Shown piece by piece: positions 356-17,468 of a DNA stretch of 64,000 bases. This DNA is from an uncultured virus (IMG/VR IMGVR_UViG_3300029931_000005). Taxonomy: Duplodnaviria; Heunggongvirae; Uroviricota; Caudoviricetes. The stretch is taken from IMG/VR virus record IMGVR_UViG_3300029931_000005. One strand, written 5' to 3'. Numbering within the stretch: position 1 is the stretch's first letter; the number at the start of each line of letters is the position of its first letter. Position numbers and translations under genes: made by a program. Under the pieces are notes generated by a model. It saw nothing but the letters and a program-made list of their open reading frames with translations, was not told where the DNA came from and did no database searches.

Positions 356-682
356 TCACCGCCACCTACCCAGCAGCCAGCCGGCCGTACCCAGTAATAT
401 TCGGTCAACGGTGAAATGGTATTCAGGTCCGCGGTCTACGCCTTCCTGCCAGACGATGTACCCATCTTCTACCCCATGGCCACAGCAGGCAGAGATTGCG
501 CCAGGGATGTAGCCCAAACAGGCATCATGTCCAGCAGGGGTTGGTGGGCGATGGCAGAGGAAACACGGCCGTTCCTCGGCGGGATCGGTGGGCACGGGCG
601 TGCCGTCTGAGCGATAGCGCCACACCTCCACCACATCGTCATAGTAGACCTCGTGGCCACGGGAGTGCGCTCTAGCTGTCAC
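356..682 (-). CDS. Cys/His-rich phage hypothetical protein
   Basis: ORF with RPCFLC and HDACLG...ACCGHG motifs; GTG start chosen from overlap with upstream gene. Confidence 0.55.
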   Translation of the reverse strand: MTARAHSRGHEVYYDDVVEVWRYRSDGTPVPTDPAEERPCFLCHRPPTPAGHDACLGYIPGAISACCGHGVEDGYIVWQEGVDRGPEYHFTVDRILLGTAGWLLGRWR

Positions 683-1361: not shown

Positions 1362-1708
1362 ATCAAAAACCCCCCTGGTGCCAATTCGTAGACCTCCCTA
1401 CTAAGACGGCGAGCTTTATCTACTACAGCGCTAGATTTATGAGTTTCCATCCAGGCCACAAACGCCAAAGCCATTTCGTCCAAATCGTGTTTGGTTACCG
1501 CCAGAGCCTGAACGAGTTCCTCACGGGTCATGTCGCCAATAGGCTTGGCAGATTCATGGCTTCGGGACCACACATACTGTTCTGTCAAGGCGAACGACCA
1601 CTCTTCTTTGTCGCTGTCAAAATCAAACCACCGACTCAGCATACGGCCGTCATCATCAACAAATGGCTTCGCCGGTTTATCTGTAAAACCACGGATAATA
1701 TCTGTCAT
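1358..1708 (-). CDS. hypothetical protein
   Basis: ATGA-coupled ORF in minus-strand operon. Confidence 0.55.
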   Translation of the reverse strand: MTDIIRGFTDKPAKPFVDDDGRMLSRWFDFDSDKEEWSFALTEQYVWSRSHESAKPIGDMTREELVQALAVTKHDLDEMALAFVAWMETHKSSAVVDKARRLSREVYELAPGGFLI

Positions 1709-1718
1709 TACAATCGCC

Positions 1719-2354
1719 TCACTTGAGATTGATAACCTCGTCTACTTGTTCCCCGGAAGTAGTAGCAATAGCTGTATACACCCCGCCGCCTTCCTGTGCC
1801 CATGTATAGCCAGCTTCTTTTAGCACTTTGTGTATCAGCGCAGATGTTTCTGGATGCAGCTTGAAGTCTGGTAGTTGTTTACCCACCCACTCCGATATAT
1901 CCCAGTGCCCCTCATACGCCCTACTGGCTCCATGCCAGTCGGCCACCATTTCTCTCACGTCGGCATCGGGCATCGGCAACGGCCGTCCAGCCCACTGGCC
2001 ACTACGGGGAATCCAGTAACTCCAATGATGGGAGTTTCGATTTTCATGATTCAGCCAGGCCAGGGCGAAGTCGTGCTCCACCTGCCCTACGTCAAATGGG
2101 AAAGACGGCCGTGTCAGACCGCTGACATGAGGCGGGACAGCGTTCCACGCCTCCATCTCCTTTTTGTACCGGCGCAGCTCGGAATAGCGCGCATAACGGC
2201 CGAATTCAGCGAGGGTAAACTTGGTCCAGTCGTGGAAGATGAGGCGCAGGAATGGCACACCCAACTTGCGGCCTGCCAGGTAGACATACCATTTGTGCTG
2301 CCAAACGCTGATAAAGTGACGTAAATACACCGATATAAGAGTCATCGCCACCAC
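1719..2354 (-). CDS. DUF5662-like HD-type protein
   Basis: HKWYV, HDWTKF, HENRNSHHW, EMVADW motifs. Confidence 0.7.
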   Translation of the reverse strand: MVAMTLISVYLRHFISVWQHKWYVYLAGRKLGVPFLRLIFHDWTKFTLAEFGRYARYSELRRYKKEMEAWNAVPPHVSGLTRPSFPFDVGQVEHDFALAWLNHENRNSHHWSYWIPRSGQWAGRPLPMPDADVREMVADWHGASRAYEGHWDISEWVGKQLPDFKLHPETSALIHKVLKEAGYTWAQEGGGVYTAIATTSGEQVDEVINLK

Positions 2355-2716
2355 CTGTGCTTGATGTCACGCGCAAGGTCAATGATCATCAGGTATGTGT
2401 AGCCGTGCCACGAGAGAACGGATGCCAATGCCAGTACCCACGTCGGACGGCCGTTGAACAGAGATGATTCGTAAAATCGCCTGCGCATCCAGTATTCAAC
2501 GAACGTGAACGGCACCCCGATGATGTACGATTCCCAAAAGCCAATCATGCCCGCCGTCTCCCATCCCACCCTGGCTGCCTGGAATAGCACCGCCATCATA
2601 TGCCACACTATCGGAGGGGGTGGATTGGGTGGACGCCACTTCTTTTTGGATTTTCTGAGTGCAATTGATGTCATCACATTGGCTCCAGGCGCACACCCAC
2701 GTAGGGGACGCGCCAC
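2342..2716 (-). CDS. small membrane protein (start uncertain)
   Basis: hydrophobic segments; fills gap in operon. Confidence 0.45.
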   Translation of the reverse strand: MARPLRGCAPGANVMTSIALRKSKKKWRPPNPPPPIVWHMMAVLFQAARVGWETAGMIGFWESYIIGVPFTFVEYWMRRRFYESSLFNGRPTWVLALASVLSWHGYTYLMIIDLARDIKHRWWR

Positions 2717-3285
2717 TGGTTCATTGGCTCCATGTAGGCTTCCACAGCCTCTACCAATCGCATGTTGAATTTCTTGGGGGCAAGGTGCAGCATGTACTGG
2801 ATGTGCATATCGAAGAACTGGCCAGTGAGGGCGCTCATCACAGAGAGGCCATCAAAGGTCAGCCCCATTGCGTTCAGAGCCACCTGGGGAATCTTGGCCC
2901 GCTTTGGCCCTGGCCCACTACGGCCGATAGTTAGGAATACCGTCAACGGCCGTCCGTTGGCGTTGGTCAGCATGGCCACCCAATGGGTCCAGGGTGAGCC
3001 GTAGGTGTCAATGTCGATGACATTCTGCACCCAACCAGGCTGAGCCAGAATCCGGGCCGAATCGATCTGCAGCCGGCCCTTCTTGTACTTCTCGTCGACG
3101 CCCCAATAACCAGCAAGTTGGTATTCTCTCTCCAGGTGCGACCAGATCACGCGCTCTCCCTGGCAGCAGTCCAGTACGTTGGGCGGGTCTCCCTGGCCAG
3201 TGTGGTACCGGTCCAGGAAGTAGCGGCGCAGCAGCAGCTTAGGCGCCAACGTGGAATTGTCCTTTTGGTAGATCGGCTCGCTCAC
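2674..3285 (-). CDS. SAM-dependent methyltransferase-like protein
   Basis: VLDCCQG motif-I-like segment, YWGVD, IDIDTYGSPW; next to a ParB-domain gene. Confidence 0.55.
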   Translation of the reverse strand: MSEPIYQKDNSTLAPKLLLRRYFLDRYHTGQGDPPNVLDCCQGERVIWSHLEREYQLAGYWGVDEKYKKGRLQIDSARILAQPGWVQNVIDIDTYGSPWTHWVAMLTNANGRPLTVFLTIGRSGPGPKRAKIPQVALNAMGLTFDGLSVMSALTGQFFDMHIQYMLHLAPKKFNMRLVEAVEAYMEPMNQWRVPYVGVRLEPM

Positions 3286-3929
3286 GAATCCCGCTCCTCG
3301 TTGTTGGTGGTCATTTCCAGGATGACATCGGGATTGTTGGCCAGATGGTCAATAACGGCCGCAATAGCACCAAACTTAACGACGGGGATACCAATGAGCG
3401 CCCACACCATGTTTGGCGGCGGTTTGGCTACATCTAGCGGCTTGAGCTTGGCCTGGTTATTGCCCTCCCCCACTTCGCCGAGCAAAGCCATAAATTCAGC
3501 ATCGGTGAAACCCGCGGCGGCCACCATCTGCTTGTCGAAGTCCTGTACCTCTTGCAAGATGCTGGCCATCTGCACGTCATCATCCAGGCTGCGCCGGGTA
3601 TGTTCATTGTCAGCCACCAGGTATGCCATCACCTTTTGGTGCGGCCAGCTCTCCGGGATGACGCGACAGTCCAGTTCCTTGAGCCCCTCCAGTCGAGCAG
3701 CCTCACCCAGGCCATGACCAGCGACAAACACGTAACGGCCGTTGGCCTGGCGCTGCACCACCACGCTCTGTACCTGGCCACCAAACTGACGGATGCTGGT
3801 GCGCAGCCCGGCAATCTGCTCTGCCGGATGCCGTCGATAGTTCATGGGGTGGGGGTCTATCAACCCTATTTCAATTCGCTCGCTGGTAATCTGCTGTTCG
3901 ATTTCTTCTTGTTTGGCTTTAGCGGCCAT
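3282..3929 (-). CDS. ParB/Srx N-terminal domain protein
   Basis: PHPMNYRRH, LRTSIRQFG, VAGHG..AA, ADN motifs. Confidence 0.8.
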   Translation of the reverse strand: MAAKAKQEEIEQQITSERIEIGLIDPHPMNYRRHPAEQIAGLRTSIRQFGGQVQSVVVQRQANGRYVFVAGHGLGEAARLEGLKELDCRVIPESWPHQKVMAYLVADNEHTRRSLDDDVQMASILQEVQDFDKQMVAAAGFTDAEFMALLGEVGEGNNQAKLKPLDVAKPPPNMVWALIGIPVVKFGAIAAVIDHLANNPDVILEMTTNNEERDS

Positions 3930-4073
3930 TTCTTCCTCACTTCTGCCCCAAACAGGCCAATTTCATATGGCTTTCGTTTGGTTTTGCTTTGGTTTTAATG
4001 CGGAAATTCGGGGTAAATACTCGCTAATGTGGCTACGCGAAGCGCATCATCTTCTCCCCCGAAAGTCGCGCTG

Positions 4074-4334
4074 CTAGTCTGCTCCCACGTGGTAGCGCAG
4101 CACGTTGATCTGGTGACGCTGCCAGGACGTAACTGCCTTGGGTGTACGTCTGGCCTTGCGCTCCAGGATGGCTAATGCGCCCTTGCGATTCATGCGCTTG
4201 ACCTGGCCCTGAACGGTCACCGGGCTTTCCTTAAGCAGACCGGCGATGTAGCTCAACGGGTTGAACTTCCAGTGCTCCCGAATGACTTCCTCAGGCGACA
4301 AGGGACGATCTTCCACAACAGGCTTCTGGTTCAT
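4074..4334 (-). CDS. hypothetical protein
   Basis: ORF preceded by GGAGG RBS. Confidence 0.55.
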   Translation of the reverse strand: MNQKPVVEDRPLSPEEVIREHWKFNPLSYIAGLLKESPVTVQGQVKRMNRKGALAILERKARRTPKAVTSWQRHQINVLRYHVGAD

Positions 4335-4682
4335 GCGATTCCTCCATTCGATTGGTGATAAAAGTTGGGTTTAACGGCCGTGATAAAAGGCCGCATGGTG
4401 AAGATGCGGCCATCGAACTGCATAGGTAATGCAACCACGGAAAGCGGACGACCATTTAGATTGTGTTTGTAGGGGAAAGAGATGCAGCTGTCATTCCTCC
4501 CACGATTGCAAGCGCCTGCCAGCGCTGGATGCTATGTCAACTCCTGCGGAATATTATAGGCGCAAGCCCCTTACGTGTCCAGTTACGGCCGTTGCATAAT
4601 GTTAGGCGTATGGTTGCCTCGCGCTGGCGTGCGTGGGCGAGGATGGCGTCATTTTGCTCGGCGAAGGTGGTGCGGTGATGCA

Positions 4683-5123
4683 TCAGCACTCCTCCTCCCC
4701 GGCAACATCTTGCCAATCTTCCACACACTCGTCGCAGCCACCGTCGATGTCATCCTCGAAAAATAAATCTTGCACTAAATTGCCGCAGTAGTTGCATTTC
4801 TGAGGCGATAGCCTCCAGAGATTCAATAGACGGCCGCTTTTAGTTGTTTCCGATCCTTCCAGAGCGAAGCCCATGCGGGCATACCAGCCGTTGCTGGGAA
4901 GATCTGCGGGGCACTTGGCAAAAACAGACGACGCCTCGGGATGACGGCTTTTCATCGCCTGCAACATTAGCCGCCCGATGCCCTTGCAGCGTTCCCCTGG
5001 TAACACAATAATTTCACGGATGGTGAGCTGGCCATCCCTACGCAAGTGATAATGCAGCAGGCCGCCTGGCCACAGGATCAGCTCCCGTCTATCTGCGGAT
5101 TCCATAAGGGTTTCAAAAATCAT
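4683..5123 (-). CDS. GNAT-family acetyltransferase
   Basis: IREIIV..ERCKGIGRLML acetyl-CoA motif, AKCPADLPSNGWYARMGF. Confidence 0.75.
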   Translation of the reverse strand: MIFETLMESADRRELILWPGGLLHYHLRRDGQLTIREIIVLPGERCKGIGRLMLQAMKSRHPEASSVFAKCPADLPSNGWYARMGFALEGSETTKSGRLLNLWRLSPQKCNYCGNLVQDLFFEDDIDGGCDECVEDWQDVAGEEEC

Positions 5124-5326
5124 GGCTGAGACTCCTCGGCGACGGCAGTTGCATCTTCGACACGATCCAGGTCGTAAAGAATGCTCCAAAGTGCCTCGAT
5201 AACCTCGCTCTTCACCATTGCCTCAATTTTATGATTGTGTAGGTTCAGCCAGTCGCGCTCGTCGCGTAACCTCGATATTTTTTCGCGCCACCGAGCTTTT
5301 ACCTGATCAAGCGTCATCGTTTTCAT
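5120..5326 (-). CDS. hypothetical protein
   Basis: ATGA overlaps on both sides. Confidence 0.55.
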   Translation of the reverse strand: MKTMTLDQVKARWREKISRLRDERDWLNLHNHKIEAMVKSEVIEALWSILYDLDRVEDATAVAEESQP

Positions 5327-6192
5327 GATTCCTCCTGGACAACGGCCGCTGCCCGTTGATACCGCCCCCAGGCCAGCGCTGACGGCTCCTCGGGCACGGT
5401 CCACAACTGCTGCATTCCCCGACATTCCACAGGCTTGATTGCCTTCGCGTCGGGCACATGCCAGGCAAAGCGGCCAGGCGAATAGTCGCCGAAGTACGCC
5501 TCTGGAGCAGATGGTGGCATGGTGATATTGCCGTAAACGGCCGTTTCCCCATACTCTACCGGGGTGCGATAGCAGCCGGTCATGCTGCCAATGGCCAGAA
5601 TTGACCCATAGTGGAAGTGTCCGCTTTCGGTATAACCATGCGCAGCCAACGTGTCTATGATCACACTGTTAAGCTCGCGCCAGTTCACCTTGCGCTTGGC
5701 GGAGTGGATGGCCAGTGGGCCGCGGTGTTCTGTTCCCCATGAGCGGGTCTCAAATAGCTTTAAGCCCAGCGCCATGAGCGTGGCCCACGGCTCCCAAAGC
5801 GTGATGGCCTTCAACACTTTCGGCATAGCCAGCCCGTCCACACGGCCGTTGCCCCCACTCTGCTGGCGCAGCCAGGCCGCAGCCTTAACCACAACGTCAC
5901 CATGACACACTTGCGGGGCACACCAACAGATAATCGCCGTATTTTCACCGATTTTTTGCAGCTCCTCCAAAACGGCCGTTTCACCCTTCTTGATCCGCGC
6001 CCACAGGTACTGCTTGTACAGCTCAACGGCCGTTTTCCGGTCTGTCCGGTCGTCAATACGGTATGGGTTGGCCAGCGGACTGCCCGGCAGGCCGCAGCGG
6101 GGGTTGGCTCGCCCGATGTACAGCCAGTCGTCGCCGTAGGCCGATTTTATGGCATAGATGGAACCATAGAGTTTGAAGTTAACGACGGGCAT
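5323..6192 (-). CDS. DUF4326 + ASCH domain fusion protein
   Basis: N-term YIGR..SPLANPY..CWCAPQVCHGDV; C-term AITLWEPWATL..KLFETRSW..RGPLAIHS. Confidence 0.8.
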   Translation of the reverse strand: MPVVNFKLYGSIYAIKSAYGDDWLYIGRANPRCGLPGSPLANPYRIDDRTDRKTAVELYKQYLWARIKKGETAVLEELQKIGENTAIICWCAPQVCHGDVVVKAAAWLRQQSGGNGRVDGLAMPKVLKAITLWEPWATLMALGLKLFETRSWGTEHRGPLAIHSAKRKVNWRELNSVIIDTLAAHGYTESGHFHYGSILAIGSMTGCYRTPVEYGETAVYGNITMPPSAPEAYFGDYSPGRFAWHVPDAKAIKPVECRGMQQLWTVPEEPSALAWGRYQRAAAVVQEES

Positions 6193-6430
6193 CTTCCCTC
6201 TCCTTGGCTAAACGCTCGATATCATCCACAAGGGAAGCGGGCAGACTGTTCATATAGCTCTGCCAAACGTTGAACAATACCTCTGCTGCAGCAGCGACGT
6301 GGGCACGCATTGATTCAAAAACTTCGCCAATTTCCACAAAAGCCTCACGCACGAGCTGAACCTCTTCATCGGTGGGCGGGATGCCTGCTTTTACCTTTTC
6401 GACAATAGCGTCCAGATTCGGCTTATCCAT
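6179..6430 (-). CDS. hypothetical protein
   Basis: overlapping operon ORF with GGAGG RBS. Confidence 0.55.
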   Translation of the reverse strand: MDKPNLDAIVEKVKAGIPPTDEEVQLVREAFVEIGEVFESMRAHVAAAAEVLFNVWQSYMNSLPASLVDDIERLAKEREDARR

Positions 6431-6665
6431 GGCCAGCCTCCACGCCAATGAGCATGTTGCCGGGAGTCACTTCCCGAGCGCCGATCACCTTGACGCCCAT
6501 CAGCTCGACCTCTCCCCCTACCTCGCCTTCATTGACCTTGCAATGGGTAGGCTTTTTACTAAAACGCTCCACATACCGCTCGATTGCCCGGCGCAGCCGG
6601 ATTTCCAGCTTTTCGCCGCTGTTATCGAATAGTTGAATGCCATCTATTTGAATACTCACTGTCAT
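6423..6665 (-). CDS. hypothetical protein
   Basis: starts at GGAGAAATGACAG box. Confidence 0.55.
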   Translation of the reverse strand: MTVSIQIDGIQLFDNSGEKLEIRLRRAIERYVERFSKKPTHCKVNEGEVGGEVELMGVKVIGAREVTPGNMLIGVEAGHG

Positions 6666-6733
6666 TTCTCCATTGACTTGACGGCCGTGCCTGCTGCCAC
6701 GCACGGCCGTCTGCTTAAGTTTTGCCCTAGAAA

Positions 6734-7168
6734 CTAAAAGGGGATGTCGTCCTCTTCCGTGGCGGAGCCGCCAGAGGCATAGCCATCCCCGCCCTCGTAG
6801 CCGCCACCGCCACTGTCGCCGCGGCTGCTCAGGAAGCGCACGGTGCTGGCATTCACCTCAAACGATGTGCCTACGGTGCCATCCTGGCGCGTCCAGAGGC
6901 GAGGCGCGCCGGTCTGCGGGTCGGCTTTTAGCTCGCCCTCGACCAACACTTTGGAACCTTTGGACAGATATTGGTTGCAGTCTTCAGCCTGCTTGCCAAA
7001 GACAGAGACGCGGAACCAAGTGGTTGTCTCTCTCGCTTCCCCGGTGGCTTTATCTGTCCACTTTTTGCCGGTGGCCACACTAAAACTGGTCACCGCCTGA
7101 CCATCAGGGAAGTAACGCATTTCGGGGGCACCCCCCAGGTTGCCTGCAATGATCACGGTCTGAAACAT
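6734..7168 (-). CDS. ssb: single-stranded DNA-binding protein
   Basis: GNLG..PEMRY, TTWFRVSVFGKQAE, LSKGSKVLVEG, Gly-rich linker, acidic tail EDDIPF. Confidence 0.97.
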   Translation of the reverse strand: MFQTVIIAGNLGGAPEMRYFPDGQAVTSFSVATGKKWTDKATGEARETTTWFRVSVFGKQAEDCNQYLSKGSKVLVEGELKADPQTGAPRLWTRQDGTVGTSFEVNASTVRFLSSRGDSGGGGYEGGDGYASGGSATEEDDIPF

Positions 7169-7370
7169 GGATTAACCTCTCTTTGCTCGATATACAAGCG
7201 TGTTTTGGCCAATGATGTGGCCGATATAAATGTGATACACCTTTGCTCGCCCTGTCCGCTTGCGGCTACCTGGGCGAAAATGGCGAACAATTCGCTTTTC
7301 AATCCAAACTGTGGCCAGCCGCACCGCAATTATTCTCCGTTGCCAATATGGTCTGGATTTCTCGCGGGAT

Positions 7371-7652
7371 TTAACCAGCAGTCGCCGTCTCTTGCTCATT
7401 GACTTCCTCATCTTTGTTGTAGGGCTGACCATCACGTCGGATGACCTCCAGTTCATAGAGAGACATCCGCTTGCGGTAAGCGCGACCAGGGATGCGAATC
7501 ATGGCCTTGCTGCCGCGAAATTCGGTTATGGTGCCCCTGTGCTTTTTAATCTCGATTGTGCCGCCGGAGCGCTTGATGGTGATCCACTCCACCTCGTCAC
7601 CAATCTGAAACCTATCCCGAATGGTTTTGCCTTTTACCTTTTCTGCGTCCAT
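7371..7652 (-). CDS. small beta-rich hypothetical protein
   Basis: ORF with GGAGG RBS. Confidence 0.55.
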   Translation of the reverse strand: MDAEKVKGKTIRDRFQIGDEVEWITIKRSGGTIEIKKHRGTITEFRGSKAMIRIPGRAYRKRMSLYELEVIRRDGQPYNKDEEVNEQETATAG

Positions 7653-7656
7653 ATGG

Positions 7657-8196
7657 TTATCCTCCTAAAAACAGGCTCATCTGAGCCGGGTTTTTGGCAA
7701 CGGGAACGGCCGTATATTGGGCCAGCCATGCCGCCGCATCATCCACAGAAGCGGGTATCACTTCGGCCACGCGTCCGGCCTGCACCGTGCTGTACCAGCG
7801 AATGACGGCCACTGTGTAAGCCAGGGCGAGGGCAATGTCGTCGTCATCTCCCCACACGTCCCCCAGCTCGGTGTTACGGCCGTAATCGCTATCGAGCAGG
7901 GTCACCCGGTCCACCAGAGTTTCGGCCAGTGGCAGAAGACTGTGGCCATGTTTGGCATGAACAGCCTCTGCCCAGCTGTGGATCAACTCGTCGCGCCAGT
8001 AGATGTACATGCGGTCAGCAATACCCAACAGGTGTGCCGGATCGATGTCAGTCTGGCCCCGCAGCTCCTTATAAGCTGCCGCGAAAAAGTCATGGACAGT
8101 CAAGCCGCAGGGCAGTCGGAAGATGGTATTCCCGCGAGACTGCGCTTCTTTCTCCAGCCAGCGGATTTCCTCGGTGCTGATTTTTAATCTAGTCAC
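7657..8196 (-). CDS. hypothetical protein
   Basis: ORF ending in QMSLF, a beta-clamp-binding-like motif. Confidence 0.6.
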   Translation of the reverse strand: MTRLKISTEEIRWLEKEAQSRGNTIFRLPCGLTVHDFFAAAYKELRGQTDIDPAHLLGIADRMYIYWRDELIHSWAEAVHAKHGHSLLPLAETLVDRVTLLDSDYGRNTELGDVWGDDDDIALALAYTVAVIRWYSTVQAGRVAEVIPASVDDAAAWLAQYTAVPVAKNPAQMSLFLGG

Positions 8197-8554
8197 GCTG
8201 CACCAATCGGGCTTGCACTTCCATCACCGTCCAGATGAGCCAGGTGAGCAGCCAGCGCAAGTGATCGCCCAGGTTGCCCGGCTGCCCCTTGAATTTCGGG
8301 GACGTATCCGACTCGCCGCCCTTCTCCTTCATGGTCACAATCAAATTGGGTGCGGGTGGCTGCTCGGGAAGCCACTCCACCTCGGCCGTGTATACTGTGT
8401 CGGCGCGCTGCATCTCGGCCACGATTGACCGCGGCATACGGCCGTTCACCACTGGGAAGGCCACAAAGTAATGCCGCTCCCGCGTGATAGGGTTCACCCA
8501 GGCTTGCAAGTCGTGGTTGTCTGATCTTTCTTCGCGGATTGCTTGGCTATCCAT
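8189..8554 (-). CDS. hypothetical protein
   Basis: overlapping operon ORF. Confidence 0.55.
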   Translation of the reverse strand: MDSQAIREERSDNHDLQAWVNPITRERHYFVAFPVVNGRMPRSIVAEMQRADTVYTAEVEWLPEQPPAPNLIVTMKEKGGESDTSPKFKGQPGNLGDHLRWLLTWLIWTVMEVQARLVQRD

Positions 8555-8798
8555 TGGCTATTACCTCATTTAGCTGATTGAAATACGGGGTATTTAGGTC
8601 AATTTCCAGGGCTTTAAGCGCCCAGGTCCATGACTCTTTTTCGTGCTCTGGGCAGTGGGCCATTGCATCAGCCCACGTGGGATAACGGCCGTGCTGAGCA
8701 AAAAACCACTTGGCGTAATTAGGACTGTCCATGTTGTCCAGGTGAGCCAGGCGCTCGCGGTCGTATTTGGTTTCGGAAACGGTCTTTTTCTTTGCCAT
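8547..8798 (-). CDS. hypothetical protein, paralog of 20500-20787
   Basis: FFAQHGRYPTWADAMAHC matches FYYQHGREPTWADAMDHC. Confidence 0.65.
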   Translation of the reverse strand: MAKKKTVSETKYDRERLAHLDNMDSPNYAKWFFAQHGRYPTWADAMAHCPEHEKESWTWALKALEIDLNTPYFNQLNEVIANG

Positions 8799-9590
8799 TG
8801 CTATGCAGCCCTTCACTTCGCCTTGGCCGCGCCAATCCAGGCCCTGCGTTGCCCTTGCGGTACTTCTCGGTGCATTGCCTCAGCTGGGCAACTCAATGCC
8901 TTGCTTTGCCTCGGCGGCGCTCCTCAGTGCCAAGCTTTACCATTGCTGACCTGCGCCCTGCCGCTGCCTTGCATCGCGATACTCCTCATTGCCTTTGCTG
9001 CGCCGCTCTGAGCGGTTCGCTGCGTTTCGGTGCCTTTGCTTTGCCAAGCTACCCAACGCGGTGCCCTCGCAACTCTCTGCATCGCCTTGCCTTTGCTGTG
9101 GGCTTCACCGCATCGCCATTGCCATCTGTGCCTTGCTCAGCTTCGCCTTTGCTTTCTGTGCGGCACTTAACCTTGCTTTACCTTTGCTTCGCGCCACCAA
9201 GCACCTCAACTCAGCACCCGGCTTGGCCGTTGCAAAGAGATGCCATGACCCACTTCGCTTTGCCTTCGCTGTGCCGCTCACCGCCAACACGAGGCTTAGC
9301 TTGGCCATTGCTGTGCTACGCCGCTCTGAGCGGTTCGCTGCGTTTCGGTGCCGTCGCAACTCTCTGCCTCGCTTTCCTTGGCGGCGCTATGCTGAGCCGT
9401 GGCGGTGCAGCACCTAACTCTGCCTTTGCTTTGCTTTTGCCGCGCGGTACGGCGCTTCGCTCAACTTTGCCGCTGCTGTTCGACGCTATGCCATGCCTTT
9501 GCCGTACGACACATGGCCGCGCCCCGGCTGAGCCGAGCTATGCAACGCCTTTGCTGCGCAAAGCCTTGCCAGGCATCACCATGCCCCTGC
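8793..9590 (-). ncRNA. putative guide/scaffold RNA array with 5-nt periodicity (NG[C/T]NN pentamers, ~25 units)
   Basis: minus strand reads GGCAT GGTGA TGCCT GGCAA GGCTT TGCGC AGCAA A GGCGT TGCAT AGCTC GGCTC AGCCG G ...; G at every fifth base, one extra base before a GGC/GGT every 4-9 pentamers; starts right after the RAMP stop codon. Confidence 0.75.
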
Positions 9591-9593
9591 GGA

Positions 9594-10193
9594 TCAGTCG
9601 CCTAATTTGTTAATCGTGTAGCTGAAACGGCCGTACCCAGCGTTGCGCCACTGGCCAAGACCGCGATTCTCACCATAGTCCAGCCACTCGCGCAGCAGCT
9701 GCTCGGAGATGCTGCCACCCAGCGCGTTGATGGTGAACTCCAACACCGTCCCCGCCGGCACTGTGTCCGACCGCGCCAGGGTCACCCGCTCGCCCTGGGC
9801 CGTTTGGGCACGCAACGGCCGTTCCAGGACACCCATGCCATCGCCATTCACCCGAATGGGAATCTGCCGGGGAGTGATGAAAACCAGCCCGTCGATCTCC
9901 TTCTTGTACGCCCGAACCTTGGATGATTCGCTTTTGTCCACCCGACGCAGCATGCCGCAGGCGTCCTTGAAGAAGCCCTTGACAACGTAGTCATAGATGA
10001 TGGGTTTCCCATCGACCTGGTGGAATCCGGTCCAACCCTTCTCCTCGGCGTGCTCGACAGATTCCAGCTCCTCGGCGGCCTGCTCGTCGGTGAGGGCCGC
10101 TTTGGTCATGATGTGCGAGGCGTAAACCTCGGGGTCTTTGGGCACGGTGCCCAACATCGGCTCTAAAAGTGTGAGTGTTACCTGATATTTCAT
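9594..10193 (-). CDS. stand-alone Cas7-like RAMP-superfamily protein
   Basis: first strand YQVTLTLLEPMLG, GKPIIYDYVVKGFFKDA (RAMP P.I.gss.KG..R equivalent), DTVPAGTVLEFTI, C-terminal Gly-rich loop GLGQWRNAGYGRF. Confidence 0.8.
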   Translation of the reverse strand: MKYQVTLTLLEPMLGTVPKDPEVYASHIMTKAALTDEQAAEELESVEHAEEKGWTGFHQVDGKPIIYDYVVKGFFKDACGMLRRVDKSESSKVRAYKKEIDGLVFITPRQIPIRVNGDGMGVLERPLRAQTAQGERVTLARSDTVPAGTVLEFTINALGGSISEQLLREWLDYGENRGLGQWRNAGYGRFSYTINKLGD

Positions 10194-11281
10194 CGCGCTT
10201 TTTCCTTTGTTGTGAATAGGTTTAGCTGGACGTAAGGCACGTCCTGCAAGGTATTGATATAAGTCCGCACACGCTCATCCACGGCCGTTACCACTGGCTC
10301 CGGATCGGGGGCAGCCTCATTAATCACTTCGTCGGGTTCAATCGGGTCCATAACTGGCGGGGCGGCTGGGCTTTCTTCGGTCGCTGGATCGGGCTTCCAC
10401 TCACCAGCATGAAACTGCTGCATGATGCGCTCCTGCTCCAGGTAGAACATTGGTGCCCACACGCCGTTCAGGCCATAAAGCATCATGTTGATTTGTGCCA
10501 TCCTGACGCAGGTGACATCAATGTCCTGGCCAAAGAACTGGACCAGCCCCATATTGATCATCCAGGGGGGAGTGTTTCTCGCGTAGGCCAGGAACATCAC
10601 GCCGCTGCCACATGCGGGATCGTGGACCTTTACTGGCTCATAATGGGAGAGTATGTGAGGCAGGATACGGGTGGTGAAATAAGCGCGGTAAATGGTCTCG
10701 TCACTCATCACCGAGTAAGCCAGGCCAGCCATCAGGCGCGCCTGGGCCGGGATTGACTTACTGATAGCCTCGACCAGATTCTTCTGGACTTCGGCGGCGG
10801 GGCCACCCAGTACACTGGCCATGAGATCGGCCACGTGGAATGGGGTGAAAAACTGGCCGTTCCATTTATTGGCCACGCCCCATTCCTGGTAACAGTCGCC
10901 CACGGTATCCCAATAGCCATCGGCTGTGGTTTGCCATAGTGCGGCCGTTGCCTGGGCAAAATAATCAAAGGGGTTGGTGCGGCGGGTGGAACCGTCGCCG
11001 TAGCGGTGGCGCAGCCGCGCGAAGAGTTTTACGGACTCTTCCGGCTCCTCGTAGGGTGCCTGATCCAGGGTGCAGCGAAAGCGATCACGCACGCTGGTCA
11101 GGGAATCCAAAACTAGGTCCAGCCAGTCGTCAAAAATTTGCCAGGGGGTTGAGCCGTAGGCGGTTAGCCGCTCCAGGTTCTTTAGGATTTCCTTGCGGGC
11201 CGCATCGCGGCTCGGGGAAAATGGGGGTAAATTTTGCTGCGCATCGCTAACGCGGCGAGCATAATCAATAGTTGCTGTCAT
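10190..11281 (-). CDS. N-6 DNA methylase (HsdM-like) domain protein lacking a visible NPPF/Y motif
   Basis: GQFFTP, DPACGSG, GQDID..CVRMAQIN; no catalytic motif IV seen. Confidence 0.75.
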   Translation of the reverse strand: MTATIDYARRVSDAQQNLPPFSPSRDAARKEILKNLERLTAYGSTPWQIFDDWLDLVLDSLTSVRDRFRCTLDQAPYEEPEESVKLFARLRHRYGDGSTRRTNPFDYFAQATAALWQTTADGYWDTVGDCYQEWGVANKWNGQFFTPFHVADLMASVLGGPAAEVQKNLVEAISKSIPAQARLMAGLAYSVMSDETIYRAYFTTRILPHILSHYEPVKVHDPACGSGVMFLAYARNTPPWMINMGLVQFFGQDIDVTCVRMAQINMMLYGLNGVWAPMFYLEQERIMQQFHAGEWKPDPATEESPAAPPVMDPIEPDEVINEAAPDPEPVVTAVDERVRTYINTLQDVPYVQLNLFTTKEKAR

Positions 11282-11327
11282 TTCTCAGTTTCTCCCCCCA
11301 CCCCGGCGGCCTGCCAGCCATGTGCCG

Positions 11328-11357
11328 GGGTGGGTTAATGTGATTTATTTAGGTCAA
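11328..11357. repeat. 30-bp direct repeat, copy 1 (copy 2 at 13240-13269)
   Basis: GGGTGGGTTAATGTGATTTATTTAGGTCAA; 28/30 identical to copy 2. Confidence 0.9.
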
Positions 11358-11361
11358 TTTA

Positions 11362-13197
11362 CTACTTTTCGAGACGCTTACGAATCATTCGCCATGCTTT
11401 ATCATTGTCCTCTCCTAACGGTCGTTTCCAGATATTTTTCTTTTTCCACCACTCGACAGCTTCCCACACGGCCGCTTCCTCAAAACCCTCAATACGGGCA
11501 AGGTGTCCAACGAACTCCGCCTCTAGCTTGGTTTCTTCCAGGCGCTGCCGATAGATTTGATACAGCACTGGCAAGACTTCCATGTACCGGCGGCGCTCCA
11601 CACGACGGCCGATGTAGAACGACACTTCTTCCAGCGTGATGTCATCGTAGTTCAGAATGAATCCATCAAATTCCGACAATAAGAACGAGACGCGCTTCTT
11701 GCGAGTATCGTACGTAGCCCACCCCCACCTGTCACGACTAAGCACGTCGTCGCCTGGGTTAAAAAGAATTTTGTAGAGCGTCTCTCTTTGTGTAGTCGAG
11801 TACCGACGAAGCCGGCTAACGACCTCTACTACCTTGTATATGCCTGGCTCTGGCAGCGGCGGGCACGTATTCAGAAAGCGATTGTCGAATCGGCATTTCC
11901 ATTCATCTTTATTTTCCCATCGGTATCGCCCAGGAATATCGGCCAGCAGAACACGTGAGCCGCGCGTGAGCCGCGCGTTTAGTTTCTCTCGCCAGGTAAA
12001 GTAATCGTCCCAACCATCTGGAAGAGACATAGTTTCATAGTCGCGATGCAAGACGATGCGCCCAGATTCGTAATCACTCTCGGCAAACATATCGAGATTA
12101 GACGGCTTCGGATTCATGACATCGGTGCGGTCCACGAGGCCCTGGAGCAGAGCGACACGGCTTTGCCAATGAATCATGTCTTGTTTCGTTTTCATTATCT
12201 CATCTTCATATTCGGACTCCTCGGCCTTAGCGATCGCCTCGACAATCTGCTGCCATGTGTCGAGTTCTGGAAAAAGCACATCGCCATACACCAAGCCGGT
12301 CTCTATGCGGTAGAAGATATCCCCGTTGCGAATCAGCAAATATACGGCGTTGTTCCGCGCCTTGGCCTCCATGTTTGCAAAGGCATCACCGTAGTCGCGA
12401 AATTGGCGGCTCGGCTTAATCCCTACGATGCACTTCTCGTATGGAAGAATGTTGCGCCAATTTCCGTCGCGCGTTACCCAATCGTCGAACACCTGAATGC
12501 TGTGGAAGTCCACACCGACCTGCCCGCCGCGACGCAGCTCGACGTCACCAACCTCTTCATCCATCCACAAGATGGTTTGCAAGATATGAATTGGCGTGTC
12601 AATTGGTGCCGGATCGCCATCCTTAATCTTGACGATTTGCTCGTACACACCAAGGTATGCTTCAATCATTTCCATGATTTTGTTCAGGTAGGCAACTCGC
12701 CGCTGCATCTTGACGGTTATCTGCCAGATTTCGTTTTTCTTGTGCTTGAGAATACGTTCCAGCATCATAGCTTTGTCTGCGACCACTTGGAACCTGGTTG
12801 CAGCTTGCATCATCTGGGCGCGATTTGCGGTCGATGCGATGATAGCTTTACTATCGCTGTCCTCAGCCATGTCTGGGTCCAGGAGTTCCGGGTTGTCGAA
12901 AAAAGCCTGATTGTCGCGAGCCGCCTTTTCAAACCCACCAGGGAGTTTGATATACTGTCTGGAATGTGCCAGGAAGCACGAGAGCGGCTCCGCCCTCGTG
13001 CTTCCCCAAGAGCTGCGCAGAATGACAAGGGTCTGCACTTTTTCGTTTTCGTACCCATTCTGCTTACCACGGCGCACCCCGACTACTGTGAAGATACGGC
13101 CGTCGCTGTCGATGTATTCTTCTTCTGGTTTCAGTCCTAATTCATTCTGAATCAGCTCAATATCTTCCACAGGTATCAGATCGCTATCTTCACTCAT
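11362..13197 (-). CDS. large hypothetical protein with coiled-coil segment
   Basis: ~610-codon ORF; no recognisable motif. Confidence 0.8.
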   Translation of the reverse strand: MSEDSDLIPVEDIELIQNELGLKPEEEYIDSDGRIFTVVGVRRGKQNGYENEKVQTLVILRSSWGSTRAEPLSCFLAHSRQYIKLPGGFEKAARDNQAFFDNPELLDPDMAEDSDSKAIIASTANRAQMMQAATRFQVVADKAMMLERILKHKKNEIWQITVKMQRRVAYLNKIMEMIEAYLGVYEQIVKIKDGDPAPIDTPIHILQTILWMDEEVGDVELRRGGQVGVDFHSIQVFDDWVTRDGNWRNILPYEKCIVGIKPSRQFRDYGDAFANMEAKARNNAVYLLIRNGDIFYRIETGLVYGDVLFPELDTWQQIVEAIAKAEESEYEDEIMKTKQDMIHWQSRVALLQGLVDRTDVMNPKPSNLDMFAESDYESGRIVLHRDYETMSLPDGWDDYFTWREKLNARLTRGSRVLLADIPGRYRWENKDEWKCRFDNRFLNTCPPLPEPGIYKVVEVVSRLRRYSTTQRETLYKILFNPGDDVLSRDRWGWATYDTRKKRVSFLLSEFDGFILNYDDITLEEVSFYIGRRVERRRYMEVLPVLYQIYRQRLEETKLEAEFVGHLARIEGFEEAAVWEAVEWWKKKNIWKRPLGEDNDKAWRMIRKRLEK

Positions 13198-13239
13198 TAG
13201 GTTCCTCGCCCTTCGCGCATCCTGACCCACCCCACACCA

Positions 13240-13269
13240 GGGTGGGTAAATGCGATTTATTTAGGTCAA
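13240..13269. repeat. 30-bp direct repeat, copy 2
   Basis: GGGTGGGTAAATGCGATTTATTTAGGTCAA. Confidence 0.9.
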
Positions 13270-13303
13270 CTTATTTGCTGCGCTTGCTGGCCATAACATG
13301 CCC

Positions 13304-13750
13304 CTAGGCGTCGATCTCCGTCCAGCCAAACTGCTGGCGCAGCCACTGCACCGCATCCTCTGTCAGTGGCTCGGTATAGCTGCAATTGCCAAGAGCGCGA
13401 TGGGCCACCTTTGCCGGATCGCCGTCCCCCTTTTGAATCCGCTCCAGAGCGTAGCGCAGGCGGTAAATAATCAGATTGGAGGACAAACGGCCGTATGATG
13501 GCTTGATGGTCACCTCAAACTCGCGCATGGTGGCTACATCGAAAAACTTCATCTCCAGGAATTTGATAGCGCCAGAGCTATCGAATATCTCGGTGCAGGA
13601 GCTGATAAACTCCACGAAGATGGGATGGTTCATATGGATTTCAGCCGTACTCTTCTCGACATCAACGCTCATCCGCTTGATATGCAAATCGACTTGTTTA
13701 CGCCGAAATGTCCGATTGAATAGATAGAAAAGTTTTCGCTTGAACATCAT
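13304..13750 (-). CDS. hypothetical protein
   Basis: GAGGAGG RBS, ATGA overlap. Confidence 0.6.
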   Translation of the reverse strand: MMFKRKLFYLFNRTFRRKQVDLHIKRMSVDVEKSTAEIHMNHPIFVEFISSCTEIFDSSGAIKFLEMKFFDVATMREFEVTIKPSYGRLSSNLIIYRLRYALERIQKGDGDPAKVAHRALGNCSYTEPLTEDAVQWLRQQFGWTEIDA

Positions 13751-14040
13751 GCCTCCTCGTCCATCCACGACGGCTTTTCCGTTTGGAGCAGCCACCAGGC
13801 ATCCACAGGGTATTCCTTACCTGTATTCAGATTGCAGATCGTCACCCGCGGCGAGCTCCACCAGTTGTTGGAGACTCTCAAGACCTCGGCTTCGATGAGC
13901 GCCCCGCCCCGATAAAACTGCACCACCGAACCTTTAGGGAAGGCAATGCACACGGCCGTGTGGTAATCTTTCTTTGCCTTGCCCAACTTTTCGGCCGCCA
14001 CGCGAACCCGCTGGATTGCTGCATCATCTACAAGTGCCAC
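13747..14040 (-). CDS. hypothetical protein
   Basis: GGAGG RBS, operon context. Confidence 0.6.
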   Translation of the reverse strand: MALVDDAAIQRVRVAAEKLGKAKKDYHTAVCIAFPKGSVVQFYRGGALIEAEVLRVSNNWWSSPRVTICNLNTGKEYPVDAWWLLQTEKPSWMDEEA

Positions 14041-14450
14041 GATAATCCTCCTGTCTTTTCACAATATGTTCCGTCACCACAAGGTCGTAGAGCGATTTCT
14101 TCGTTGTGGTAGTTAACGCTGTACGCTGGCCCATCTGGCAACTGGACAACCTTCACCTGTGCCCGGAACGTTCGACCCTTAACCGTGACTGTGGCCTTGG
14201 TAAACGATGGCTCTGGGCCGTCGCTCCAGCGCCAGGACCAGTTGCGAGGATGGCAGGTGTCGAAATTGCACAGCTGAGGAATGGATCCGCTGGTGACACT
14301 TGTCACCACCTCGATGGCCTTGTCCCGGTGAATGTGCTCGTTAAGAGAATGCACATTCCCGTTTCGCACCTCATCCAGATAGTAAAAGTGCCCGATACGG
14401 CTGACCTTGATGCGTGTCCCTGTTTGTTGTGATAACGTTGTTGGTAGCAT
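14028..14450 (-). CDS. hypothetical protein
   Basis: operon ORF. Confidence 0.55.
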   Translation of the reverse strand: MLPTTLSQQTGTRIKVSRIGHFYYLDEVRNGNVHSLNEHIHRDKAIEVVTSVTSGSIPQLCNFDTCHPRNWSWRWSDGPEPSFTKATVTVKGRTFRAQVKVVQLPDGPAYSVNYHNEEIALRPCGDGTYCEKTGGLSWHL

Positions 14451-14522
14451 TGTTCATGTACTCCGTGAATGATGTCAGGCCGTTCCTCGATGGTTGATCG
14501 CCTGCTCGGGGAACGGCCGTTT

Positions 14523-14888
14523 TTATTGTTGTTTGTTGGCATCCTGAGGATGCTGCTTAAATCCGTACACATGCCAAGGGTAGCCATCAAACGGTCGCGT
14601 CCCAGTGCGAATGGCTACAATCTCAATGCTTGGATCGTCAAAATACAGTTGCAAATATCTTTCTATGCGCCGTGCGGTGCGCCGGTTGCCACATTCGGCG
14701 ACGGCGGCTTCCCATGCGGACTCGTGCTTTTCTGGGTCATATTGCTCTAAGCGGTCATCATATTCCCAACGGAGGCCGTCAACTTGGTGGCCAAAAATGA
14801 TTGCGCCGTTTCCATCAAAAGCAGGATCGCTGTAGTGGGAGAAGGCGTACTCTGCCGTTTTGATGTTAGTGTGATAAAAATAACTCAT
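14523..14888 (-). CDS. hypothetical protein
   Basis: GAGGAG RBS. Confidence 0.6.
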   Translation of the reverse strand: MSYFYHTNIKTAEYAFSHYSDPAFDGNGAIIFGHQVDGLRWEYDDRLEQYDPEKHESAWEAAVAECGNRRTARRIERYLQLYFDDPSIEIVAIRTGTRPFDGYPWHVYGFKQHPQDANKQQ

Positions 14889-14914
14889 GCTACTACTCCT
14901 CTTTTGTCAGGTTT

Positions 14915-15802
14915 TTAGTTATGCTGAGAAATATACTTCGGATTGTGATACCCATCCGGCAGATAGCGTTGGAGGTCTTTTTTGATGTAATGCCGCACAC
15001 CCAGGCGGTTCACCAGCTCCAGGATACGATGCGTGTAGCTCTCCCAATCAGTGGTGTCCGTCATGGGCAGATAGTTGGCACGGCCGATCTTGTACAGGTC
15101 CACAAACTCGTGGGTGCGCTCGATAATGGCCAGGCTGCTCTCGGTGTCGAGTGTCGGTTCCAGGGATACCCAGGTGAAGATACCGGCATCATGAAATGCC
15201 TTGAGGGTAGCAATGCGATCGCCAGGAAGAGCGGCCCCCCGTTCCCATTTCAGAGAGAAGGTATCATCCAGGCTGGTGAGGGTGCTGGCAAAGGCATCCT
15301 GGCCCGGACGGAACATGCTCAGGTAGGGCAACGCGCGCTGGCCGCCCTTGGTCAACGTACAAACGCCAAGACCGTGGGCCTGTAGGATTTCAATGGTGGG
15401 GCCGGTTAGAGACATATCAGACGGGTTAAAGGGATCGGTGGTGAATGACATCATCACCTGCTCCTTAACACCCATTGCCTGATATTTTTTCGCGTCCTTG
15501 AGCAAATTCTTGAGGAAGTCTGGACGAGGAACGGCCGCTTCATCAAACTCCGACCGCTTCATGCGGAGCATGTCGGGCACATAACAATAACTGCACTTAT
15601 GGCTGCATCCCCGATACGGATTGGTGGCCAGCTTGCTGTACTCGCCTGCCCGCCCTCTGGGGGCGTAGATGATGGTGCAACCTTTGACACTCCACCCGTC
15701 CGGGTTAAGCGTATAGGGTGTTTTGGGCACAGGGATGCCCGAGGGGGTATCTTCCGACGCTGCCACGTCGAAAAACGACATTTGGTTGGTCATAGCTGTC
15801 AT
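14915..15802 (-). CDS. radical SAM protein (SplB-like)
   Basis: NPYRGCSHKCSYC (CxxxCxxC), SFTTDPF, LTKGG, TWVSLEP. Confidence 0.9.
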   Translation of the reverse strand: MTAMTNQMSFFDVAASEDTPSGIPVPKTPYTLNPDGWSVKGCTIIYAPRGRAGEYSKLATNPYRGCSHKCSYCYVPDMLRMKRSEFDEAAVPRPDFLKNLLKDAKKYQAMGVKEQVMMSFTTDPFNPSDMSLTGPTIEILQAHGLGVCTLTKGGQRALPYLSMFRPGQDAFASTLTSLDDTFSLKWERGAALPGDRIATLKAFHDAGIFTWVSLEPTLDTESSLAIIERTHEFVDLYKIGRANYLPMTDTTDWESYTHRILELVNRLGVRHYIKKDLQRYLPDGYHNPKYISQHN

Positions 15803-15871
15803 TTCTCCTGTGGGTTGTTCCCACGCTGTTGGAGCTGCCTCGCTTAGCCGCTGCCACGGCCGCAAGAAGCG

Positions 15872-16432
15872 TTATTCTTGCCGCGATTCGATAAACTCGT
15901 CTAGCTGCTCCTTGTCAAAATATTTGCCATCAATTCCTTGCTTGTATTCTAGCGCTCCGGTCTGAGCGTGGTACCAAACGGTTCGCTTGCTCAGCTCGAC
16001 GCCACGTTCGGCCAGGTACTCGATGGCTTCATCAATATTGTAATCGCCTGGCTCAGCAATCTTCGCCAGATCTTTCCGCCAGTAGACATAGCGGCTGCCA
16101 ATCTTCTGACCAGGGATGTTGTCTACCCTGGTGTGATAGTTTACGTTCACGATGTCCGTGCTCAGCAGCTCTGCCACTTCGGCCGAGCCCACAATATCCG
16201 GGGCCGGCTTGTCGGTGTGCCCGCCATTTTTGATGTAATCATCTAGCTGGGCACGGCCGTAAACCCACACGCCGCCGATGTTGGCCGGCTTAATCTTGCC
16301 ATGGCGGCGATGGTGGCGCAGGGTTGGCAGTGGGGTTTCGGTATACATGGCTGCATCGACCTCACCAAAGAGGCGCTTTTTCTCCGCCATATGATCCACT
16401 CCTAAAACTTCTTGATCTTCGAGGATTAACAT
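15872..16432 (-). CDS. DNA-binding protein with three tandem MerR/excisionase-like HTH repeats
   Basis: three repeats of the EAA.YL...TV.YH...G.I.....G...Y....LD.. pattern. Confidence 0.65.
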   Translation of the reverse strand: MLILEDQEVLGVDHMAEKKRLFGEVDAAMYTETPLPTLRHHRRHGKIKPANIGGVWVYGRAQLDDYIKNGGHTDKPAPDIVGSAEVAELLSTDIVNVNYHTRVDNIPGQKIGSRYVYWRKDLAKIAEPGDYNIDEAIEYLAERGVELSKRTVWYHAQTGALEYKQGIDGKYFDKEQLDEFIESRQE

Positions 16433-16474
16433 ACCATACCCCTTGTTTTTGCCCGTAGGCGTGACCTACAGGAT

Positions 16475-16502
16475 ATTATATAGACAAATAGAAATAATGC
16501 AA
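16475..16502 (-). promoter_or_regulatory. sigma70-type promoter TTGCAT-N16-TATAAT
   Basis: read directly in an AT-rich intergenic gap. Confidence 0.75.
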
Positions 16503-16562
16503 CACATTAGCGGAAAATAGGCCAAAACTGCTACCAGTGTGCCAGATGTCAATGCGGGTTAA

Positions 16563-17468
16563 CTACTCCGAATTGTCGTCGGGGGCGCGGCAACTCTGAC
16601 ACACATCGTCATCATCCAGGTCGGCCCACAGCTTGAACTCGCCACACTCGTCACAGTCAGCACCATGCTTGCGACTGCAATCTTCGCAGACCACCCCTAC
16701 CCCTGGCACACTGGCGTAATACTCGTTGTCGCGGTTATATGGCTCATGGCACCCCTCGCACACGTCCCAGGAATCGCCCATAAATCCATAGTGTTCCTGC
16801 AACAACCACATGATAGACGCCGCCTGCTCAGCCTCGATCGGCTTCCACCCCTCTATATGGCACAGGTCCGGGATACGGCCGTCCACCAGGAACTGCCACA
16901 GGGACATGAACTGCCACTCCTCGTGGCAGTCGTCACAGAGGGGAGTGGAAACAACAGTTGCGTCGTCACGTGACTGCCACTCCTGAATGATGTTGGTGGC
17001 CACGCTGCGACGACTCCCAGAGCAGCGAGCGCAGCGGACCGACTCCAGAACATTACGGCTCACATAAAACGACCCATGCGCGGGAAACTGAACCAGAGCG
17101 ATGTCGCCATATTTGCTGTCGGTCGAAACTACTCCTAGGGCACCTACAGGTACGGAGGGATTTTTGCCCCGATCGATAGGCTCAAGCAGCCTGGCAACTT
17201 GGCCCGGCCGAATCTCTTCCCAAAAGGGAACGGCAAGCCGGTGGCTGGGGCTGGTAAGCGTGAGGGCTGGCCACCGCTCCAGAAAAGCAGCGACTGTCAG
17301 CGTTTCGTACTTCACGCTACCGGCGGGAAACATTCTAATCACCAGCTGTATCGCGATCTCAACCATCGGCTGGCCAGTGTCCAGGTCCAGCCACATGGCG
17401 CGAATGCCGATGTGGTTATTGTCAATTCGGAAAAAGTTACCGACTTCCAGCTTGTTTTCGCTCATCAT
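16563..17468 (-). CDS. hypothetical protein with multiple CxxC motifs
   Basis: CARC, CDDC, CEGC, CEDC, CDEC, CQSC. Confidence 0.7.
   Translation of the reverse strand: MMSENKLEVGNFFRIDNNHIGIRAMWLDLDTGQPMVEIAIQLVIRMFPAGSVKYETLTVAAFLERWPALTLTSPSHRLAVPFWEEIRPGQVARLLEPIDRGKNPSVPVGALGVVSTDSKYGDIALVQFPAHGSFYVSRNVLESVRCARCSGSRRSVATNIIQEWQSRDDATVVSTPLCDDCHEEWQFMSLWQFLVDGRIPDLCHIEGWKPIEAEQAASIMWLLQEHYGFMGDSWDVCEGCHEPYNRDNEYYASVPGVGVVCEDCSRKHGADCDECGEFKLWADLDDDDVCQSCRAPDDNSE

Follow-up and report, generated by a model that had tools for sequence, protein, structure and literature searches.

The minus-strand array at 8795-9593 of the window, by which we mean the whole stretch of 64,000 nucleotides from an uncultured virus that we analysed, probably serves a phage-borne VIPR system as its array of guide RNAs (vrRNAs). 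Its ~155 Y-N-N-N-G repeats fall into 25 units, and a CNNNGG hexamer closes every unit. Its anatomy is periodic throughout, its protein partner has the RAMP fold, the two are strictly linked and co-oriented, and the array turns over cassette by cassette. Systems of this kind have already been published, in preprints that appeared from April to October 2026, and the locus is a further, non-canonical member, distinguished by a GY/NNN repeat, a long array devoid of tails, ~25 hexamer-closed cassettes and the lack of a vap gene. We do not claim the 5n+1 grammar of the cassettes as new. So far, our analysis has rediscovered a published system independently and has added some descriptive detail that is new.

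VIPR was first described in 2026 as a CRISPR-like RNA-guided system, and passages of the original preprint present it as a phage-encoded ancestral RAMP protein, Vipr (~20 kD), together with vrRNAs in which 9-16 YNNGG repeats are followed by a 3' tail that does not vary (bioRxiv 10.64898/2026.04.26.720920). According to the same passages, the NN bases pair with double-stranded DNA, with every third target base skipped; there are seven types of VIPR; and variant repeats (NNNGG, YNNNG, NNNNG) occur together with varied array architectures, among them 'staggered arrays with overlapping vrRNAs' (10.64898/2026.04.26.720920). The portion we cite of the companion structural preprint reports that the Vipr of SUSP1 places one protomer on each repeat in a binary filament of six subunits per turn, that G1 is read by H17 and D177 and G2 by R138 and W178, and that the Y pocket excludes purines (10.64898/2026.04.26.720927). 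Later preprints, again as represented by passages, tell of solo or stand-alone, satellite-borne vrRNAs that redirect VIPR, and of decoys (10.64898/2026.10.15.759431), and of 21 clusters with non-GGY pentamers (10.64898/2026.10.21.760802).

Read on the minus strand, the array of the window is an unbroken series of 5- and 6-base Y-N-N-N-G repeats extending over ~800 nt. It lies between two minus-strand genes, one encoding a 199-aa protein (9594-10193) and the other an 83-aa ORF (8547-8798), and contains no credible ORF of its own. Self-match at a lag of 5 nt is 0.448 in the array versus ~0.25 in both flanks, and the peaks of self-match fall at 5, 10, 15/16, 21, 26, 31, 62, 93, 124 and 155 nt. 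Spectral power rises to 14.4-14.6 at a period of 5.15-5.20 nt, whereas its median over the window is 0.65 and it never exceeds 2.9 outside the array; at a period of exactly 5.0 it is 0.25, the background level. Both the missing peak at 5.0 and the failure of Tandem Repeats Finder to detect the array are explained by a +1 register slip at about every sixth repeat. GC dinucleotides on the minus strand are spaced 5 nt apart 43 times and 6 nt apart 22 times. Tandem 5-nt repeats (at least four), a fixed scaffold with hypervariable bases and an intergenic position beside the gene, the features by which a VIPR array is recognized, are all found here.

How regular is the array at the level of single repeats? 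A cyclic HMM applied to the minus strand of 8790-9600 returned 157 repeats, of which 131 are pentamers and 26 are hexamers. In the resulting logo, position 1 is C at a frequency of 0.71, position 2 is A (0.49) or G (0.32), position 3 is mixed, position 4 is G (0.36) or A (0.32), and position 5 is G at 0.96. The canonical GGY/NN consensus does not hold, with its first G at only 0.36, and the consensus is therefore Y-N-N-N-G. The sequence-only reading that preceded this analysis had counted, by eye, about 150 pentamers in about 25 units, most of them ending in a 6-nt step, with a few register slips; the parse agrees on each count, giving ~155 repeats in 25 units that are all 5n+1 nt long. Unit lengths are 11, 21, 26, 31, 36, 41, 46 and 91 nt, and the cassettes hold 2 to 9 repeats, most commonly 5 or 6. 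The slips are concealed in the 91-nt 'unit', which has three 4-nt steps, each adjoining a hexamer. The hexamers have the general form CNNNGG, mainly as CAAAGG and CAATGG; GG is the ending of 24 of the 25 that lie inside the array, and 13 begin with CAA.

The same grammar extends to the arrays of relatives. All parsed arrays together yielded 439 distinct clean units, defined as at least four repeats consisting of pentamers and a terminal hexamer, and their lengths peak at 6 repeats (128 units), followed by 5 (97) and 7 (68). CAAAGG (100), CAACGG (47) and CAATGG (35) are the commonest hexamers. In 24 clusters of homologous units, 11, 44, 50, 47 and 4 of 129 columns are variable at positions 1 to 5, respectively, from which it follows that the G and the Y are fixed and that the three positions between them vary about equally. 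The modal unit of 6 repeats (31 nt) agrees in number with the six subunits that make one turn of the binary filament in the published Vipr structure, which may be a coincidence.

Two internal duplications that had been read from the sequence are both real. An exact 34-bp repeat (9001-9034 and 9319-9352) cannot be extended on either side, and an exact 14-bp repeat, TCGCAACTCTCTGC, occupies 9067-9080 and 9354-9367; both are embedded in longer stretches that are imperfectly duplicated (47 nt at 91%, 30 nt at 90%). The 34-bp repeat is contained in unit 18 (8992-9032, minus) and unit 10 (9305-9350, minus), which are copies of one another and whose hairpin folds score z values of only 0.25 and 0.14 relative to shuffles. 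Assemblies of sequencing runs X1-X4, which probably stem from the source samples, break at this repeat, with contig ends at 9030/9034 and 9348/9352, and its copies are long enough to mislead short-read assembly of the array. The last junction of the array reads CATAG CAATGG CAAAG on the minus strand. The ATG that had been pointed out within it is present (8798-8796) and opens the downstream 83-aa ORF (8547-8798, minus) as a candidate start inside the final hexamer, with a GTG at 8816 as the alternative; this ORF lies outside the conserved module.

A close relative of the locus is found in contigs of runs X5 and X7, which come from two other studies. Its vipr gene is ~88% identical to that of the window, the vipr part differing at 87 positions and by 2 gaps in 755 nt. 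The array, by comparison, is common to the two only in blocks, namely 8735-8908, 8940-8998, 9106-9153, 9251-9271 (X7 only) and 9527-9560. In both contigs the joint 8908>8940 removes exactly 31 nt, corresponding to unit 21 (8909-8939, minus; TAAAG CTTGG CACTG AGGAG CGCCG CCGAGG), which is wholly missing from the relative. The remaining block ends lie 0, 5, 7, 7-8, 10 and 12-13 nt from a unit boundary, and several in the X5 contig are 10-13 nt off, which counts against the cassette reading. From this block comparison, turnover is faster in the array than in the sequence on either side, and whole units account for at least part of it.

Arrays of related gut phages extend the observation. Units are held in common in different orders, single units are gained or missing, and others are chimeric or fused. 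Loci L010, L011, L015 and L018 have four leading units in common and then diverge, L011 having three of them in full and the fourth in chimeric form, and L015 carries three L012-type units, two identical and one variant, in another context. In a set of 38 unique arrays, a unit boundary is no more than 3 nt away from 33.7% of the 617 block ends versus 21.0% of all positions, an enrichment that counts non-independent events. The shuffling of units that had been proposed from the window alone is thus seen among relatives, whose arrays, when compared for gain, loss and reordering as the sequence-only reading had suggested, are not invariant. These comparisons support the view that the units bounded by 6-nt steps behave as evolutionary modules.

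The 31-nt difference also bears on whether the array might encode protein, for example through the 273-aa plus-strand ORF at 8792-9613. That frame is indeed open, but a difference of 31 nt between relatives is not a multiple of three; moreover, the translation is of low complexity and rich in Cys, Leu, Pro and Ala, the plus strand is so poor in A that stop codons are rare by composition, and the flanking genes are all on the opposite strand. We regard the probability of a coding function as negligible.

The gene adjoining the array (9594-10193, minus) encodes a stand-alone Cas7-like RAMP of 199 aa with the G-loop GLGQWRNAGYGRF, its C-terminus being RGLGQWRNAGYGRF, the glycine-rich loop of RAMP proteins. 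Its family comprises no fewer than 4,357 unnamed proteins. A Pfam search with the protein gave no match, even at an E-value of 10. A 24-sequence profile of the family, compared with solved structures, matched type VII Cas7 (E 0.0066) and Csm4 (E 0.015). The AF2 model (pLDDT 87.9, pTM 0.82) retrieved type VII Cas7 and type III Csm3 in Foldseek with E ~1e-7 and TM scores of 0.55-0.61. PADLOC reported a weak match to type IV Cas7, and the neighbors of the protein in the ESM Atlas are viral clusters, one of them labeled 'RAMP superfamily'. The G-loop, the profile and the model with its Foldseek matches together identify a stand-alone RAMP like that of VIPR (RRM core, G-loop and thumb), and the scans described below found no CRISPR-cas context around it.

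Similarity to characterized Vipr is weaker. A tblastn search did not recover SUSP1, and hhalign aligned the family profile colinearly with SUSP1 Vipr along 170 columns, G-loop to G-loop, at a weak E of 5.4e-4 and a probability of 30%. In this weak alignment (probability 30%), the G1-reading residues H17 and D177 of SUSP1 are opposite T16 and Q181 here, and the W and R of the loop are kept. Such a replacement would fit the lost conservation of the first G in the repeats of this family. The weakness of the similarity speaks against identification of the locus as VIPR, as do the departure from the canonical GGY, the lack of a conserved structured 3' tail and the lack of a natural target in our searches.

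Relatives of the protein at ~47-60% identity gave 91 loci, 79 in viral contigs and 12 in genomes. Of the 91, 89 have an array with a period of 5.0-5.3 nt no more than 1.2 kb away from the gene, downstream in 65 and upstream in 24; among windows more than 1.5 kb from the gene, only 15 of 7,969 reach the same power. On the sense strand of the vipr-like gene, each of the 89 arrays is rich in purines and has more G than C, and CAAHGG occurs in them 234 times in the sense and 0 times in the antisense orientation. No other part of the surroundings is conserved: for 14 neighbor proteins of the window, no conserved neighbor gene was found at any of the 79 loci (SSB occurs in 5), no accessory (vap) gene is conserved among the 79, and none of the 79 has a relative of the 83-aa ORF beside its vipr gene. 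The conserved module therefore consists of a RAMP gene and a co-oriented array, which points to a function in RNA rather than to a symmetric DNA site.

A DNA-level element, in which a DNA-binding protein would coat sites recurring every half turn of the helix (5.17 x 2 = 10.3 bp) as at a centromere or an origin, might be suggested by the coherence of the 31/6-nt period over at least 155 nt and by the presence of a ParB-like gene at 3282-3929. However, the 5.17-nt period follows from about one hexamer per six repeats, the orientation of the array agrees with that of the RAMP gene in 89 of 89 cases, the hexamer is strand-specific (234 versus 0), and the conserved partner has an RNA-binding RAMP fold. 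We consider such an element extremely improbable.

Does the locus belong to a CRISPR-Cas system instead? The window holds no CRISPR array, and no cas genes were found among the 21 ORFs of 672-18584 searched against Pfam and PHROGs or the 9 ORFs of 7172-13795 searched with PADLOC. A repeat-spacer array with further cas genes beside the Cas7-like protein, the hallmark of class 1 CRISPR-Cas, is therefore absent. The sequence-only reading had taken the array for a set of guides diversified without Cas1-Cas2, and the lone Cas7-like RAMP partner, which resembles that of VIPR, agrees with this. Its interpretation stands as regards a guide array that does without Cas1-Cas2 and turnover by units; recombination between junctions, which it named as the cause of the shuffling, is a candidate mechanism, and the role that it gave to the 6-nt steps is taken up below as a proposal. 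The location is viral, since the flanking genes are of an early phage type (SSB, ParB-like, methyltransferases, an excisionase-type HTH), the stretch is identical to part of an IMG/VR contig, and loci of relatives are likewise found in viral contigs. The last 4 nt of a 363-aa gene (10190-11281, minus) are shared with the vipr gene. The 363-aa product contains no more than part of an N6-adenine methyltransferase domain (residues 204-272), and a 622-aa protein without a family match is encoded upstream of its gene (11362-13230, minus); neither is conserved beside the vipr genes of relatives.

A search for RNA sequencing runs that contain the locus found none. An Rfam search of the array gave no match, hammerhead included, and no promoter-like or minus-strand terminator-like sites were found inside it; a plus-strand terminator-like match at 9018-9032 is within the expectation from shuffles. 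There is no fold signal, and the duplicated 47-nt block folds no better than its shuffles. A conserved structured 3' tail following the tracts, as is typical of type II, was not found in the array, whose sole long repeat has only 2 copies. With neither promoter nor terminator, and with no Rfam or fold signal, the array looks like part of an early operon transcript that has no promoters or tails for individual guides.

Natural targets were sought in a local set of 1.18 Mb with 167 units, each having 7 or more repeats, and six pairing models (NN or NNN reading, target steps of 2 to 4), and real units scored the same as shuffled ones. A seeded search of this set showed no excess of skip 1 over skips 0, 2 or 3 or over shuffled order. 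An exact NNx scan gave 3 viral-contig and 15 metagenome-contig matches for unit 9 and 1 viral-contig match for unit 14, both units having 9 repeats; these matches fall in unrelated genes and are about as many as estimated by chance, in a scan whose restriction to exact matching gives it low power. The base opposite position 4 is matched in 0-4 of 9 repeats. One match (L135 = L140) runs into the flanking unit, with 5 of 6 bases across the hexamer, and the others do not extend; after correction for the 8 flank tests this extension is at chance level, and it is in doubtful coding sequence. Units of 4-6 repeats would specify only 8-12 bases under the published NN rule and have fewer repeats than characterized vrRNAs with their 9-16, a further point against the VIPR reading. 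As a unit of 5-6 repeats amounts to only 10-12 bases under NN, it can be argued, on this reckoning alone, that either position 4 is also read or several units act together.

Could some or all of the units be decoys that capture or redirect the Vipr of a competing phage? Stand-alone vrRNAs that redirect VIPR are described in passages of a preprint (10.64898/2026.10.15.759431), and no target was found in our searches. Those searches had little power, however, and the array is beside a vipr gene of its own in 89 of 91 loci and hence is not solo. A decoy role is, in our estimation, highly unlikely.

By analogy with the systems of SUSP1 and P. fulva, we can outline how a VIPR system of this kind might operate. 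The 800 nt downstream of the vipr gene would be transcribed from the minus strand together with it. One Vipr protomer would bind each repeat, gripping the G of position 5 and the pyrimidine that follows at position 1, and the variable bases would be free to pair, with gaps, to the double-stranded DNA of a rival phage or prophage, whose silencing is the presumed result. The first G of GGY is free in this family, so that the repeat comprises GY and three variable bases. The hexamer may mark the 3' end of a guide, either as the end of a filament or as a cleavage site, and the ~25 cassettes are what related phages gain, lose, replace and fuse.

Taken to its full extent, this outline leads to a more specific proposal. 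This large family of Vipr proteins (at least 4,357) may have a code and an array logic that differ from those of characterized type II systems, with a G-Y scaffold and three programmable bases, and guides placed head to tail without tails or promoters. CNNNGG would mark where a filament ends and the next begins, each filament having about six protomers and thereby making close to a full turn of the published binary helix. We offer this as possible, though on the whole we lean toward doubting it. If it is true, the hexamer would be the functional counterpart of the CRISPR repeat in a tail-less guide array shuffled by cassettes.

Alternatively, the array could belong to VIPR without the hexamers being guide boundaries. 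It would then form a few long guides or one continuous filament, the +1 steps would be tolerated shifts of register, and the cassettes would result only from recombination at CAAAGG, the commonest short repeat. The shortness of single units, with their mode at 6 repeats, agrees with this, as does the binding of 6- and 7-nt units by SUSP1 Vipr within a filament of 12 protomers, as judged from a tract that we read in the SUSP1 locus and from the 12 subunits given in the structural preprint (10.64898/2026.04.26.720927); the chance-level match of L135/L140 likewise crosses a hexamer with 5 of 6 bases. Yet a whole 31-nt unit is deleted in a relative and units recur in other contexts, and the sole read-through match carries little weight after the 8-test correction and given its doubtful coding sequence. 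We find this reading rather unlikely.

The SUSP1 locus itself (NC_028808.2) shows how a 6-nt step can be placed. Its 195-aa RAMP gene (28474-29061, minus) has GGTNN tracts on both flanks (27499-28031 and 29061-29511, minus), each of which ends in a 6-nt GGTATG or GGTGTG before the tail, followed once by a 7-nt unit. A characterized system therefore also has a +1 step where its tracts end on the 3' side, and such a step is not peculiar to the family of the window.

With VIPR type II, represented by Escherichia phage SUSP1 and the P. fulva prophage, the locus has in common a phage-borne stand-alone RAMP of ~20 kD with a G-loop and thumb, adjoining co-oriented 5-nt repeats with a fixed G and Y, tracts that end in a 6-nt unit, and the absence of Cas1-Cas2 and of a CRISPR array. 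It differs in having GY/NNN instead of GGY/NN repeats, T16 and Q181 instead of H17 and D177, and no conserved vap gene. It also has one 800-nt array of ~25 units where type II has separate vrRNAs of ~100 nt, each with 9-16 repeats and a structured tail of ~40 nt, whereas the array of the window is without tails; and this system is known from sequence alone. The non-canonical VIPR arrays (YNNNG, NNNGG and NNNNG, and the 21 non-GGY clusters), as described in passages of the preprints, also place a degenerate pentamer array beside a Vipr-like fold. The main-text passages of those preprints mention neither a 5n+1 grammar nor punctuation by hexamers, which supplementary fig. S18 may already draw. 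The Cas7 backbone of class 1 systems (type III Csm3, type VII Cas7) is the best structural match and likewise places a protomer on each short RNA segment with periodic flipping of bases. Unlike those systems, however, the window has no repeat-spacer array and no other cas or adaptation genes, and its period is 5 nt with an occasional 6 rather than a uniform 6 nt.

Why is a further member of a published kind of interest? VIPR is a newly described mode of DNA recognition by a small protein and a repeat RNA, and has been proposed as a forerunner of CRISPR. The locus represents a very large unnamed branch with a looser GY/NNN repeat, in which ~25 short cassettes are held in one transcript-sized array with +1 punctuation and whole cassettes are swapped between related phages. 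Should the hexamers delimit guides, they would explain how such an array is parsed without tails, promoters or a step of the Cas6 type, and would make it possible to call guides and predict targets by rule across thousands of metagenomic loci.

Other repeats were encountered in the course of the analysis. The window has further short tandem repeats at 24633-24774 (22- and 18-nt units with C7 or G5 runs), 45831-45909 (19- and 9-nt units) and 60850-60943 (a 33-nt unit in 2.8 copies at 98%). Signals of period 5.0 near relatives of the 83-aa gene (L104:1550-2150, L112:1200-1450 and L117:1-480) were considered as arrays and rejected, being genes for pentapeptide-repeat proteins with 15-nt coding repeats (e.g., GCCAATCTGTGCGGA); such genes are a class of false positives for period-5 scans. 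At L109:7300-7560 and 7615-8148, a canonical GGYNN array of ~45 repeats, which keeps a strict 5-nt register but is interrupted by the odd pentamers GCTTT, GGAAT and GACTT, is followed by an ORF that looks Vipr-like by eye, with ELTGSCPILFHRW near its N-terminus. The array lies ~3 kb from a relative of the 83-aa gene.
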